Sequence record: SRR31156797_1193
DNA: 64,000 bases
Strand: one strand, 5' to 3'
The notes beneath the pieces are model-generated. The model saw nothing but the letters and a program-made list of their open reading frames with translations. It was not told the origin of the DNA and searched no databases. Positions 3,848 through 62,583 of this stretch are shown here, one piece after another. A program made the position numbers and the translations under genes. Position 1 is the stretch's first letter. The number at the start of each line of letters is the position of its first letter.

Positions 3848-4501
3848 ATGGATTTAGAAAAGATAAACGAAATAGCATATAAATTAATGGGCAATAGAAA
3901 GGCGCACAATGAGAGAGAAATAGGGGGGATATATTATCATGGGCAGAGAACTGCCAGCCTTGCAATAGAACTTAGAAAGCTGATAAATCTAAACGATAAT
4001 TCTAATGATGATATTATCATGGCAGCTTGTATTCTGCACGACTGTGGAAAGGGAATAGAACCACATGGGATTTACGGCGCTATTATTGCAGAGGAAGCAA
4101 TAAAAGACATTGTAACGCCTTTAGAATCGACTGTAATTTGTGAAATCATTTATGAACACAATAATAGAAAGCCTGATTCATGTGATTTATCCGAGGCTAT
4201 AAAGATAGTACAGGATGCAGATATGATTGATCATTTTGGTACATATGAGATATGGATGAACATTAATTATTATGTGCATACAAATGGGACTATTCAGGAT
4301 ATGATTTATTATTATAGAGAACATCATGAATCATTTATTGAGAAAAACAGAAAGCTCATAAATTACGATATTAGTAAAAATATATTCGATGATAGAGTGA
4401 AATTTCAGAAATCATATATTTCAAGATTAACTGTGGAGGGTAACGGCGGTATATATCATAAAGACAGAATGATAAAAAACGAAGGACTAGGAGTAAAATG
4501 A
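3848..4501 (+). CDS. HD-domain metal-dependent phosphohydrolase
   Basis: YYHGQRT...LHDCGK...HG...EHN...QDAD signature. Confidence 0.85.
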   Translation: MDLEKINEIAYKLMGNRKAHNEREIGGIYYHGQRTASLAIELRKLINLNDNSNDDIIMAACILHDCGKGIEPHGIYGAIIAEEAIKDIVTPLESTVICEIIYEHNNRKPDSCDLSEAIKIVQDADMIDHFGTYEIWMNINYYVHTNGTIQDMIYYYREHHESFIEKNRKLINYDISKNIFDDRVKFQKSYISRLTVEGNGGIYHKDRMIKNEGLGVK

Positions 4502-4980
4502 ATTTAGTAAAGGAAAATATAAATAATGATATTGCTGCAATAATTGCTAAGTGGAGCTATACTGATGAATACTCTTTCTATAATATTATAAATGAAGAGG
4601 GGATAATGGATGAATTGCTTAATAGCGAGTACTATGCTGTTTGTGATGGAATTGAGCTAATTGGGTTTTACTGTATAGGCAAGGAATCACAAGTTCCAAA
4701 TGATGCTGTTAATGAAATATACGCAGATGATAGATATATTGATATTGGGCTGGGCATGAAACCGGAATTAACAGACAGAGGATATGGCAGAGAATTTGTA
4801 GGGTTCATTATGGAATGTACAAAGGAAGAATATGATAAAAAGAAGTTGAGACTGACAGTTGCGGCCTTTAATCAACGAGCCATGAAGGTATATAGGGCTT
4901 TGGGATTTAATCAAATAGCTAGTTTCGTAAGAGAAAGCGATAATATTGAATTTATCATTATGGTTTGTGATATTTTGTAA
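4498..4980 (+). CDS. GNAT family N-acetyltransferase
   Basis: IGLGMKPELTDRGYG acetyl-CoA motif, NQRAMKVYRALGF; ATGA overlap with the HD gene. Confidence 0.85.
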   Translation: MNLVKENINNDIAAIIAKWSYTDEYSFYNIINEEGIMDELLNSEYYAVCDGIELIGFYCIGKESQVPNDAVNEIYADDRYIDIGLGMKPELTDRGYGREFVGFIMECTKEEYDKKKLRLTVAAFNQRAMKVYRALGFNQIASFVRESDNIEFIIMVCDIL

Positions 4981-5001
4981 CAGATATTTTGTAATCTATG
5001 T

Positions 5002-5030
5002 TTGCAAATTATATTTACCTGTGATATACT
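5002..5030 (+). promoter_or_regulatory. sigma-A promoter with extended -10
   Basis: TTGCAA-17 nt-TATACT preceded by TGn. Confidence 0.7.
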
Positions 5031-5055
5031 AACTTAAATTTGTTAGGAAGTTTGT

Positions 5056-5115
5056 ATGAAAAATATTATATTAACAAGTGCAAAGTATTATTATTACATT
5101 ATGCCGTATGCGTAG
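5056..5115 (+). CDS. putative Tyr attenuation leader peptide MKNIILTSAKYYYYIMPYA (19 aa)
   Basis: AGGAAG RBS, ATG 5056, TAT TAT TAT TAC at 5086-5097, TAG 5113-5115; directly upstream of tyrS. Confidence 0.85.
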   Translation: MKNIILTSAKYYYYIMPYA

Positions 5116-5184
5116 TGTGATATTTTAGTGTAAAAATCGCAGAAGCAGTACGGCTTATTCAGTTAGTGAATAGGTCGTTTTTTT
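5103..5184 (+). terminator. attenuator: antiterminator 5103-5154 overlapping intrinsic terminator 5150-5184
   Basis: Terminator ACGGCTTATTCA-GTTAG-TGAATAGGTCGT plus T run; GCCGTATGC (5103-5111) can pair with GCAGTACGGC (5145-5154). Confidence 0.8.
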
Positions 5185-5248
5185 GTGTAAAAAACAGATT
5201 CTCATATTTGCAATAAATATATTGAATAAAAGAGTAAGGAGTAAGAAA

Positions 5249-6460
5249 ATGACTATTGATGAAAAGGTACAGATACTAGTAAAAGGAGCAAGCCAGCATT
5301 CGGATATTGATGAGATTAAAGAGAAATTCTTGAACGCTGAGACTGAGAACAGAAAGCTGATAGTGAAGCTGGGGCTTGATCCAACAGCCCCTGATATTCA
5401 TTTGGGGCATGCTGTGGTCTTGAGGAAAATCAAGCAGCTACAGGATATCGGATGTAAGGTGGTTATTGTAATTGGCGATTTTACTGGTGCTATTGGTGAT
5501 CCAACAGGTAAATCAAAGACTAGGAGACAACTCACAAAAGAGGAAATAGCAAAGAATGCTGAAACTTACCAGGAGCAGATATTCAAGATAATAAATTCTG
5601 ATTTATCTGATGTGCGTTTTAATAGTGAATGGCTGCAAAAACTAAATTTTCGTGATGTCATAGACTTAGCATCAAGAACCACAGTAGCCAGAATGCTGGA
5701 GAGAGAAGACTTTAAGAATAGATACACCAACAACATGCCTATTGGGCTCCATGAATTTTTCTATCCTTTAATGCAGGCATATGATTCTGTTGCCATTGAA
5801 GCAGATATTGAACTAGGCGGAACAGACCAGACATTTAATATCCTGATGGGTCGTAAGATTCAAAAGGAATTCGAGCAAAAGCAGCAGATTACAATCTTTA
5901 TGCCGCTTTTAGAGGGTATTGATGGAGTGAAAAAGATGAGCAAAAGTCTGGGCAATTATGTTGGAATATATGAAAAACCGTCTGTCATGTTTGAGAAGAT
6001 TATGAAAATTCCAGATGATCAGATAATAAAATATTTTGAACTTTGCACAGATATGATGCCTTGGGAGATTGAAGAGATAAAGGAACAGATGAAAGAGGGG
6101 ACGAATCCCCGAGATATAAAAATGAACTTAGCGAAAGAGATAGTAAAGCTTTATCATGATGATGATAAGGCTAATGAAGCGGTTGATAATTTTAAGTTGG
6201 CATTTCAAAAGGGAATAGCTCCAGATAATACACCAACGTTGTTAATATCAAATGAGGAAAATGCAGGTGAAAGTATAATAATTTCACTGATTGATGGAGG
6301 TTACTATTCTTCAAAAAGCGAACTACGTAGATTGTTTAAACAAAATGCCGTTTCTATTAATGGAAATAAGGTAACCGATGCCAGAGATATTAGGGGAATT
6401 AAAGATGAGGATATATTAAAAATCGGTAAGTCCAAGTATTTTAAACTATCATTGAAATAG
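5249..6460 (+). CDS. tyrS: tyrosine--tRNA ligase (type 2, TyrZ-like)
   Basis: KLGLDPTAPDIHLGH (HIGH), YPLMQAYD, GGTDQ, KMSKS, C-terminal S4 domain; AAGGAG RBS before ATG 5249. Confidence 0.97.
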   Translation: MTIDEKVQILVKGASQHSDIDEIKEKFLNAETENRKLIVKLGLDPTAPDIHLGHAVVLRKIKQLQDIGCKVVIVIGDFTGAIGDPTGKSKTRRQLTKEEIAKNAETYQEQIFKIINSDLSDVRFNSEWLQKLNFRDVIDLASRTTVARMLEREDFKNRYTNNMPIGLHEFFYPLMQAYDSVAIEADIELGGTDQTFNILMGRKIQKEFEQKQQITIFMPLLEGIDGVKKMSKSLGNYVGIYEKPSVMFEKIMKIPDDQIIKYFELCTDMMPWEIEEIKEQMKEGTNPRDIKMNLAKEIVKLYHDDDKANEAVDNFKLAFQKGIAPDNTPTLLISNEENAGESIIISLIDGGYYSSKSELRRLFKQNAVSINGNKVTDARDIRGIKDEDILKIGKSKYFKLSLK

Positions 6461-6485
6461 ACTTAAATTTTTATATAGTGGATAT

Positions 6486-6520
6486 AAAAATACCTAGCAG
6501 AAAATACTGCTAGGTTATTT
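6486..6520. terminator. bidirectional intrinsic terminator
   Basis: ACCTAGCAG-AAAATA-CTGCTAGGT between convergent genes. Confidence 0.8.
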
Positions 6521-6543: not shown

Positions 6544-7329
6544 TTAAAGCCTGCCTGTAACTCTTTTCACTTTCCAGCCGCATTTTTGAGCTATATCGTT
6601 TATGGCATTTTGAAGAATTGTAGTGTCTAAATTAATATCCACAACCTTTCCGATTGAGCCGTCTTTTTTTCTGCCAATGACAATTTCCTTTTTCTTTGAT
6701 GTTGCTTTACCTTTGAATGTAGAGACTTCCATACCCATGCCGCCAAAGCCAAAGCTGGATTGCTTTGATAATAATTTATCTTTACAACGAAGTTCGCCAT
6801 TTTGCTCATCAAATTTTAGGAGAATATCAAACTCATCCTGCTGTTTATATTTGTTTAAGCCTAACATGCCAAGATACTCAGCATCTGAAAGCTTCCAATG
6901 GGCAATCATGTCAGCATTGTTTCCTTTGGTTTCTTGAAATGAAAAGGGAAGCCTTGTATCATTTAAGCCATGAAACATCTGTTTTAATTCATGCGCAGGT
7001 ATTCTAAATCCGTTAGTACTTTTTATGTTGTTTAGCTTTTGTGCTACTAACTCACGTATTTGTTGTAAGCTGATAGTTGATTGTTCAGGAGTGGATTTCT
7101 GCTGTGACATAGCTGGATCCTGTGAAGGCTGGATAGAATCAACGTGGTTACTGTTCTTAGATTTGTTTCTTACCAGTTTAATACCAAAAATTAACGGAAC
7201 AATACCTAAAACTACAACAAATATGCTAGCAAAAATATCAGTTCCAGATTCTGCATTAAAAGCCATTAATCCTCCAATAGCCCATATAGCACCTGCTATT
7301 ATTAATATGATGCCAAAAAACTTCTTCAT
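6544..7329 (-). CDS. hypothetical membrane protein (2 N-terminal TM helices plus soluble domain)
   Basis: AAGGAGG RBS, 261-aa ORF. Confidence 0.7.
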   Translation of the reverse strand: MKKFFGIILIIAGAIWAIGGLMAFNAESGTDIFASIFVVVLGIVPLIFGIKLVRNKSKNSNHVDSIQPSQDPAMSQQKSTPEQSTISLQQIRELVAQKLNNIKSTNGFRIPAHELKQMFHGLNDTRLPFSFQETKGNNADMIAHWKLSDAEYLGMLGLNKYKQQDEFDILLKFDEQNGELRCKDKLLSKQSSFGFGGMGMEVSTFKGKATSKKKEIVIGRKKDGSIGKVVDINLDTTILQNAINDIAQKCGWKVKRVTGRL

Positions 7330-14784: not shown

Positions 14785-15058
14785 GATAAAGTGTTGACGG
14801 AGATAGGCAATATCTTAGGATATCTATAGAGAGCTGGCGGTTGGTGGAAAGCTGGTGCTATCATTATTGCAATCACTCTTGAGCTGTTCCTTGAAATTAC
14901 GTTTGGTAAAAGTAGAGGACACCGGTTAATCCCGATATAGATTTGTGGGCTTGATAGAGCCTAGAGGTGGTTTTTTTATTTATAAAAAAACAAGATGAGT
15001 GGTACCGCGTAGTTAATAACTGCGTCTCTTCATAGGATGTTGAGACGTGGTTTTTTTG
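14785..15058 (+). ncRNA. T-box riboswitch, specifier probably ATC (Ile)
   Basis: GA motif, AGAGA bulge (14828-14832), GGTGGAA apical loop, specifier A-ATC-A-CTCTTGAG (ATC 14872-14874), stem II AGTA/GAA, T-box AAGATGAGTGGTACCGCG (14992-15009), terminator CTGCGTCTC...GAGACGTGG-T7. Confidence 0.92.
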
Positions 15059-61722: not shown

Positions 61723-62583
61723 ATGAATAACATTAAGAATGAAAATATTACAATTGTCGGTCTGGGTCTTATGGGCGGCTCTTATGCTAAAGCTCTGAAG
61801 AGAGCAGGGTATAAGAATATTTTTGCTGTTGATTTAGATGAAAATGTATTAGAGTTAAGCTGTCGACAGGGCGTAATAAATGAAGGATATATTAATCCTG
61901 ATAAGATACTGCCTGATACTGATATATTGATAATATCATTGTATCCTCACGATACTATTGATTTTATGAAGAATAACTATAAACACTTTAAGCAGGATTC
62001 ACTTGTAATTGATATTTGCGGTGTTAAGTCCATGATAGTTAATGAATTTCCCAAGGAAATGCTTGACAGATGCGACTTCGTTCCTACTCATCCTATGGCA
62101 GGCAGAGAGAAGAAGGGCTATGAAATGTCTGTAGAAGATTTATTTGATGGCAGTTCATATGTAATTACACCTCTTTTAACAAATAATGATTCCAACATTG
62201 AAGTAGTCAGAACTTTGGCAAGGGATATTGGTGCAAAGAAGATATTGACGTGCAGCGAAGGAGAGCATGATGAATATATTTCTTATGTTTCTCAATTACC
62301 TCATGTTTTGGCATGTGCATATATGGCTTCCTCAAAGGAACGCCCTTTAAGTGAATATGCCGCTGGCAGCTTTCGTGATGTATCTCGTGTAGCTCTGATA
62401 AACGAAGTTATTTGGCAGGAATTATTTAACCTTAATAAGGACTTCCTATGCGAAGAGATTTCCCAACTGATAGTTGAGCTGGATAAATTTCGTACTATGA
62501 TTAAAGGCGAAGAGAAAGACATGGCAATTGACTATATGAAAAAAGCCAGACGAATTAAGGAAAATTACGATAATATAGACTAA
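61723..62583 (+). CDS. tyrA: prephenate dehydrogenase
   Basis: GLGLMGGS, DICGVK, HPMAGRE, HD...SQLPH, GSFRDVSRVA. Confidence 0.92.
   Translation: MNNIKNENITIVGLGLMGGSYAKALKRAGYKNIFAVDLDENVLELSCRQGVINEGYINPDKILPDTDILIISLYPHDTIDFMKNNYKHFKQDSLVIDICGVKSMIVNEFPKEMLDRCDFVPTHPMAGREKKGYEMSVEDLFDGSSYVITPLLTNNDSNIEVVRTLARDIGAKKILTCSEGEHDEYISYVSQLPHVLACAYMASSKERPLSEYAAGSFRDVSRVALINEVIWQELFNLNKDFLCEEISQLIVELDKFRTMIKGEEKDMAIDYMKKARRIKENYDNID

Follow-up and report, generated by a model that had tools for sequence, protein, structure and literature searches.

Leader-peptide attenuation of transcription is a textbook mechanism that is viewed as mainly proteobacterial and actinobacterial, and the aminoacyl-tRNA synthetase (aaRS) genes of Firmicutes are the home ground of the T-box. 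The pheST attenuator of E. coli consists of the pheM leader peptide, a terminator and a competing antiterminator, and is induced when the cognate charged tRNA is low. The leader of tyrS, the tyrosyl-tRNA synthetase (TyrRS) gene on a stretch of 64,000 nucleotides (nt) from sequence record SRR31156797_1193 (the window, in what follows), resembles pheST in that an aaRS gene lies behind a short open reading frame (ORF) rich in its own amino acid, with a terminator and an antiterminator in between. The two differ in that pheST responds to Phe, belongs to a gammaproteobacterium, the window DNA coming from a rarely sampled Clostridia-like bacterium, and shares no sequence relationship with the window, and its attenuation is proven by experiment, whereas the window leader is known from sequence alone. 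This leader is probably a Tyr-sensing, ribosome-mediated transcription attenuator, tuned to the supply of charged tRNA-Tyr.

PMC1262725, which mentions pheST attenuation, describes attenuators before trpS2 and leuS in Streptomyces. These are likewise classical leader-peptide attenuators at aaRS genes of Gram-positive bacteria, although they are found in Actinobacteria, use Trp or Leu codons and were predicted from few genomes. According to that paper, no Firmicutes aaRS gene was known at its date to use classical attenuation. In bacilli, hisZ and a hisS paralog have His-leader peptides upstream (PMC2965389), and the his genes of the B. cereus group, Peptostreptococcaceae, Lutispora and Erysipelotrichales have His-leader attenuators (PMC9413887); the statement in the initial annotation of the window that Bacillota aaRS genes use T-boxes was therefore too absolute. 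The window leader resembles these Firmicutes His leaders, which are sporadic and lineage-specific, replace T-boxes or repressors and carry three to five tandem cognate codons just before the attenuator hairpins. They differ in that they read His and are backed by alignments of related genomes, whereas the window leader reads Tyr and is a single sequence. A leucine-rich attenuator peptide is described in S. aureus (PMC5794164). Literature searches on tyrosine or tyrS leader peptides yielded only T-box work on tyrS; the supplementary gene-family lists of PMC2965389 could include tyrS leaders. Leader-peptide control of aaRS genes is already known, the Tyr specificity would be new and the host group is unusual. 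The T-box (RF00230), found at B. subtilis tyrS and at 16 of the 30 tyrS genes sampled below, also makes a terminator/antiterminator choice in answer to the charging of tRNA-Tyr. There, however, uncharged tRNA binds an RNA of about 220 nt directly, whereas the sensor in the window would be a ribosome on a 60-nt ORF.

The tyrS gene (5249-6460, + strand) encodes a tyrosine--tRNA ligase of 403 amino acids with HLGH and KMSKS motifs, which scores 376 bits against TIGR00234 (cut-off 113.8) and is the only TyrRS locus within the window. Among solved structures, those most closely related to the enzyme are 6bqy, 6byq and 1h3e from Thermus, with E-values from 1e-95 to 1e-108, and the matches to 1jii (1e-34) and 2ts1 (1e-32) are far weaker. 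This Thermus-like kind is called type 2 here, a label of our own. The leader upstream of it, about 150 nt long, begins behind a sigma-70-type promoter at 5002-5030 on the + strand, recognised in a consensus scan (9/12 matches) by a -35 element TTGCAA (5002-5007), a 17-nt spacer and an extended -10 element TG-n-TATACT (5022-5030), from which transcription would start at about 5037. A Shine-Dalgarno (SD) site, AGGAAG (5045-5050), lies 5 nt upstream of the ATG at 5056, which opens a 60-nt ORF of 19 codons and a TAG stop (5056-5115, stop 5113-5115) for the peptide MKNIILTSAKYYYYIMPYA; a longer ORF is excluded by the in-frame TAG at 5044-5046. The proposed sensor is the uninterrupted run of four Tyr codons (TAT TAT TAT TAC) at codons 11-14 of this ORF (5086-5097); a fifth Tyr codon follows at 5107-5109. 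The promoter, ribosome-binding site, 19-codon ORF and Tyr codons had all been described in the initial annotation and were recovered at the same positions.

Three overlapping hairpins are predicted in the leader RNA. The 1:2 hairpin, or anti-antiterminator (5092-5122), is made of 13 pairs around a 5-nt loop, with UUUUAG after it, and is predicted by ViennaRNA to have a free energy of -13.1 kcal/mol; its 5' arm contains Tyr codons 3 and 4. Its segment 5103-5122 is shared with the 2:3 antiterminator (5103-5154, -18.9 kcal/mol), which consists of an outer stem (5103-5111/5145-5154) and an inner stem (5116-5121/5135-5140). The 3:4 structure is an intrinsic terminator at 5150-5184, with a stem of 12 pairs (5150-5178, -14.0 kcal/mol) and the U-tract TTTTTT (5179-5184). 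Antiterminator and terminator overlap in 5150-5154 only; these five bases make up the bottom of the terminator stem, beside the U-tract, a part that a terminator cannot do without. The exclusion of this terminator by the antiterminator had been seen in the initial annotation, which overlooked the 1:2 hairpin. The tyrS gene has its own SD site, AAGGAG (5236-5241), 7 nt upstream of its ATG. The consensus scan finds no promoter-like site on the + strand between 5100 and 5991, including 5185-5248, and tyrS therefore depends on read-through of the terminator. The locus thus has the parts that define an attenuator: an SD-led short ORF near the promoter, a run of cognate codons, a terminator, and an antiterminator (2:3) that is incompatible with both the 1:2 and the 3:4 structure. 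The 1:2 hairpin with its TTTTAG tail (5092-5132) was itself scored as terminator-like by the consensus scan, and might plausibly serve as a pause site that synchronises ribosome and polymerase.

From these elements, their mutual exclusivity and their geometry, we infer translation of the ORF, ribosome stalling, polymerase pausing and a regulatory outcome as follows. After transcription has started at about 5037, the leader ORF would be translated before RNA polymerase has left the leader; the polymerase may be waiting at the hairpin of 5092-5122 and the U-rich tail behind it. When Tyr-tRNA is plentiful, the ribosome would reach the stop codon at 5113-5115 and cover 5103-5124, so that the antiterminator is blocked, the terminator at 5150-5184 can form and transcription would stop before tyrS. 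When Tyr-tRNA is scarce, the ribosome would stall with its A site on Tyr codon 1 or 2, perhaps 3, masking the 5' arm of the 1:2 hairpin and leaving 5103 onward free. Segment 5103-5111 could then pair with 5145-5154 once this is made, and with 5150-5154 occupied the polymerase would read into tyrS.

Folding of the leader RNA with and without a ribosome is consistent with this switch at the stage at which the decision would be taken. Without a ribosome, the full-length leader folds as the 1:2 hairpin plus the terminator (-37.4 kcal/mol). The nascent RNA was folded over 5037-5160, before the 3' arm of the terminator exists, with three ribosome footprints, and the outer antiterminator pairs were counted out of nine. 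With the A site on Tyr1, all nine pairs form at each footprint; on Tyr2, the counts are 9/9, 9/9 and 7/9. They fall to 8/9, 6/9 and 0/9 on Tyr3 and to 3/9, 3/9 and 1/9 on Tyr4. Once the A site has reached Ile, Met, Pro or the stop codon, none or one of the nine forms (0/9 at the stop). By these counts, the first two or three Tyr codons would be the effective sensors, and a ribosome that has moved past the run would block the antiterminator. The initial annotation had proposed that stalling on the Tyr codons frees 5103 onward; the folds bear this out for Tyr1, Tyr2 and in part Tyr3, whereas a stall at Tyr4 covers part of the arm.

The leader is not a T-box. A permissive Rfam scan of 4900-5320 found none at E<=10 and returned just four chance-level matches of other families, in agreement with the initial annotation. 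The sole gathering-level Rfam match in the 64-kilobase (kb) window is a T-box (RF00230, 97.9 bits) at 14785-15032, near the 14.8-kb position where the initial annotation had seen one, and the two mechanisms would thus coexist in this genome. The T-box at 14785-15032 precedes an operon for the acetolactate synthase small subunit, 2-isopropylmalate/citramalate synthase, leuC/leuD-like proteins, isopropylmalate dehydrogenase, ilvD and an ilvB-like protein. At the tyrS leader, these in silico tests support the central proposal of the initial annotation, an attenuator that reads Tyr codons in a leader peptide and takes the role of a T-box.

The leader arrangement also exceeds chance expectation. 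The fold of 5035-5200 has a z-score of -4.4, and none of 200 shuffled sequences folds as well. A first-order Markov model predicts 0.69 occurrences of (TAY)4 on the two strands of the window (128 kb), where there are four. The window was also screened for SD-led upstream ORFs (uORFs) between 6 and 40 codons long that contain three or more identical residues in a row and have a terminator-like hairpin no more than about 130 nt away, and this screen returned two ORFs, the tyrS leader ORF and a Thr-run ORF at 2878-2958. The latter is SD-led, has 26 codons with Thr-Thr-Thr and a terminator-like hairpin, and lies between a hydrolase and a methyltransferase gene; its hairpin is probably merely the terminator of the hydrolase gene.

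Leaders of the same design occur at tyrS genes of other Clostridia. Of 399 Clostridia genomes sampled evenly, 31 carry a type 2 TyrRS, and 30 upstream regions (29 plus L005) were examined. Sixteen have a T-box, nine have neither element (plain or operonic, including two contig ends and one partly masked region), and in five a short ORF with a Tyr run is followed by a terminator and then tyrS. The five uORFs lie at 442-531 in L182 (genome G106), 425-508 in L183 (G326), 424-507 in L184 (G351), 423-518 in L186 (G080) and, on the - strand, 302-418 in L187 (G066); their terminators have U-runs from 576, 558, 557, 572 and, on the - strand, 254, respectively. With L183 and L184 near-identical, these loci represent four lineages from four orders of Clostridia. 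The Tyr runs read YYY, YYYNYYY or YVYAYSYYY (3-6 Tyr codons), and a recognisable SD site precedes the uORF in three of the four lineages, L187 being without one.

All five leaders share a conserved AGGCTTGGGC-type antiterminator arm, and in the nascent RNA of each, the terminator's 5' arm pairs with sequence from the 3' portion of the uORF. In a nine-pair antiterminator core, 34 of 36 cells are paired, compared with 11-62% in slid registers. Covariation in this antiterminator is indistinguishable from shuffles (291/500) with four distinct sequences only, and the terminator of the family shows compensatory changes in 8 of 17 pairs. The distance from the first base of the Tyr run to the start of the antiterminator arm is 17 nt in L183/L184, L186 and L187 and 29 nt in L182; in the window, it is likewise 17 nt (5086 to 5103). 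At E<=0.01, Rfam recognises none of the five leaders. A covariance model derived from all five (R1) matches once per genome, and only before the uORF-led tyrS, in four of the five genomes (74-116 bits). Its best match in the window is exactly 5083-5184, although weak (22 bits, E 0.034 over 64 kb), the next match scoring 21.2 bits at an unrelated site, and the alignment covers the Tyr codons and the terminator only. The window leader resembles the family in having a promoter, a Tyr-run uORF, an arm in the 3' part of the uORF, a terminator and a type 2 tyrS. It differs in that the AGGCTTGGGC-type arm is absent from the window, in that the family belongs to a separate TyrRS clade, and in that the uORF-led tyrS there is a second copy beside type 1. 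As judged from sequence, what the window leader and the R1 family share is architecture, not demonstrable homology. As an independent analogue, the family corroborates the attenuator proposed for the window.

The five uORF-led genomes each also carry a type 1 TyrRS, and the uORF-led enzyme is therefore a second copy there. The type 1 tyrS genes of G106, G351, G326 and G066 (L193-L196) have no T-box at E<=0.01 and stand behind another gene or a plain promoter; that of G080 is split over two contig ends and was left out of the upstream comparison. Control that responds to tRNA charging thus appears to lie only on the second tyrS copy in those genomes. The second-copy TyrRS clade is present in 6 of the 399 sampled genomes, and Tyr-run uORF leaders in five of these six. 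Further uORF-led tyrS genes were not found in the orders of G080, G106 and G066. G135 (L185/L202), a member of this clade, has neither a terminator nor a Tyr run before tyrS; about 90 nt upstream, inspection by eye shows a Tyr-rich small ORF ending within the tyrS ribosome-binding site, which could be a translational variant of Tyr-uORF control. At G429 (L190, reverse strand), which belongs to the same TyrRS clade, a long ORF ends about 100 nt upstream of tyrS and there is no Tyr-run uORF within 700 nt upstream; an insertion may have displaced its leader.

In a maximum-likelihood tree of 43 TyrRS proteins with a midpoint root, the window enzyme stands apart from the uORF-led family. The uORF-led TyrRS proteins and that of G135 form their own clade (100/100). 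The window TyrRS falls outside it, in a different and well-supported clade, as sister to a plain-leader group (L001-L004, L007 and L053; 100/99), and both are nested in a clade that includes T-box-controlled genes (98/97). Given the separate clades, the simplest account of the window leader is that it was invented independently, in a lineage that has T-box-controlled genes elsewhere in its wider clade. The design of the window appears to have arisen in place of a T-box, the direction of change being an inference from a tree rooted only at the midpoint. The balance tips slightly towards the broader proposal that Tyr-leader attenuation of tyrS arose at least twice in Clostridia, converging on the 17-nt spacing, that it represents a Tyr-specific leader class absent from Rfam, and that ribosomes keep pace with the polymerase there.

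If the attenuator is real, tyrosine would join the amino acids sensed by leader-peptide attenuation, and the window tyrS together with the independent Tyr-uORF clade would show that two sensors can be exchanged on the same terminator/antiterminator output. In these Clostridia, ribosomes would then have to stay near enough to RNA polymerase, unlike in B. subtilis with its runaway transcription. Since a ribosome can decide the fate of a terminator 60-90 nt downstream only if it is close behind the polymerase, such leaders offer a natural test case for transcription-translation coupling in Clostridia. uORFs of this kind escape annotation pipelines and Rfam.

Several observations on folding, comparison and coupling weigh against this interpretation. 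The spacing is tight, in that the antiterminator arm is covered by a ribosome stalled at Tyr4 or, if the footprint is long, at Tyr3. When a ribosome footprint is masked on the complete leader, equilibrium folds retain the terminator in 57 of 60 combinations and switch in three, much of which is due to pairings with the U-tract and with far-upstream AU-rich sequence that are unavailable at the moment of decision. Folding with ribosome-covered segments, suggested in the initial annotation, thus reveals the switch in nascent RNA and not in most equilibrium folds of full length. In these models, the attenuator works only under kinetic, co-transcriptional folding. Over 5103-5178, the antiterminator and terminator states are nearly isoenergetic (-24.4 vs -23.5 kcal/mol), and the switch must therefore be kinetic, as it is in classical attenuators. 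Ribosome-free nascent RNA also favours the antiterminator (-18.9) over the 1:2 hairpin (-13.1 kcal/mol). The off state would therefore rest mainly on the translating ribosome, and untranslated transcripts may read through, unlike in trp superattenuation.

On the comparative side, the leader is a single sequence, and the homologs compared are at most 63% identical or have 22 nt upstream. The comparison comprised the 80 genome-contig and 80 metagenome-contig matches listed; there are at least 160 such loci, and closer relatives are possible. Among the matches listed, the closest homolog on a genome contig (species representatives) is 63% identical to the window TyrRS, and the closest on a metagenome contig is L081, at 73% identity and with an upstream region of just 22 nt. 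Among the 160 loci listed, five of which have 24 nt or less upstream, there is no convincing Tyr-run uORF with an SD site at the usual distance, and the five closest homologs with upstream DNA among them (61-63%) have a promoter and a short plain leader. Furthermore, the public-run search listed no RNA run containing the stretch. Finally, RNA polymerase outruns ribosomes in B. subtilis (runaway transcription; PMC13323073), and if it did so here, ribosome-mediated attenuation would be hampered.

It is unlikely that the leader is a genuine attenuator with a sensor other than the ribosome, such as an RNA-binding protein (possibly TyrRS), a tRNA or a small molecule, and that the Tyr-run ORF is incidental. 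Such a sensor would fit the lack of evidence for ORF conservation among the homolog loci compared and the insensitivity of the equilibrium folds to ribosome masks (57/60), and E. coli ThrRS is known to autoregulate by RNA binding (PMC2965389). It leaves unexplained, however, why the ORF has a well-spaced SD site, why its four cognate codons fall precisely on the 5' arm of the 1:2 hairpin, and why the 17-nt spacing is that of three independent lineages of Tyr-uORF leaders. The low chance expectation of the Tyr run and uORF and the lack of a match to any known riboswitch or T-box also speak for ribosome-mediated sensing, and a leader of only about 150 nt, 60 nt of which are ORF, argues against another sensor.

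Very unlikely, too, is that 5150-5184 is the terminator of an upstream operon, whose GNAT gene ends at 4980, that tyrS has its own unrecognised promoter, and that uORF and folds are chance products of AT-rich DNA. The genes at 3848-4980 are indeed co-directional with tyrS, no other terminator occurs before 5150, and AT-rich DNA gives many weak promoter-like sites (8 found vs 8.7 expected in shuffles). Yet a good extended -10 promoter lies between the GNAT stop codon and the terminator, 5185-5248 holds no promoter-like site, and transcription from the best weak candidate found by eye would begin within the coding sequence; the fold z-score and the improbability of a cognate codon run by chance point in the same direction. 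That the uORF serves a ribosome-dependent attenuator for general translation stress (antibiotics or slow elongation, as in the ermC/vmlR type) instead of Tyr-tRNA is highly improbable. Inhibitor-responsive attenuators that depend on the ribosome are the better-known class of Firmicutes uORFs (PMC2965389 on ermC and PMC9226507), but here it is tyrS that is regulated and the run consists of Tyr codons, and the separate uORF-led tyrS clade also has Tyr runs in five of its six sampled members.

The lineage of the window is very sparsely sampled, since the closest proteins in a collection of 5.8 billion are four singletons at 73-76% identity to the window TyrRS (P0002-P0005). With IF-2 as marker, no close relative was found in the order of G004 (38/39 genomes matched) or in the class sample of 399 genomes, where identity plateaus at 60-65%. 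Five genomes with homologs 57-63% identical to the window TyrRS (G001-G005) each have a single TyrRS above the family cut-off, and the Thermus-like (type 2) enzyme is the housekeeping TyrRS there. The initial annotation had suggested that the window gene could encode an inducible second or inhibitor-resistant TyrRS; uORF-led tyrS genes are second copies in the other Clostridia described above, and the type 2 gene is the sole copy in G001-G005. Of the 20 homolog loci scanned with Rfam, 7, at 50-57% identity, have a T-box before tyrS; T-boxes were called by Rfam, as a simple T-box regular expression was too strict and missed loci called by Rfam. Tyr-run ORFs at L040 and L094 (on one contig), L148 and L156 were rejected as leader uORFs for want of an SD site at a normal distance.

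Among public sequencing runs, a DNA run (X1) has contigs identical to the window over 5009-5395; it is probably the source sample and hence not independent. It is the only public run with 4900-6500 of the window, in short contigs with a depth of about 3-5 amid unrelated contigs of far greater depth; the sample is mixed, and the organism is a minor component of it.

Elsewhere in the window, a prephenate dehydrogenase (tyrA-like) gene at 61723-62583 begins 29 nt after the start of a divergent gene for a vWA-domain protein. This gap leaves no room for a leader, T-box or uORF, and Tyr biosynthesis is therefore without the tyrS leader. Downstream of tyrS, a bidirectional terminator-like hairpin at 6492-6515 closes both tyrS and the convergent gene at 6544-7329. 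Among the sampled type 2 tyrS genes, the partly N-masked locus L174 (G136) carries tandem G-rich repeats of about 100 nt at 260-560 (ATCAATGG-type units) upstream of tyrS.

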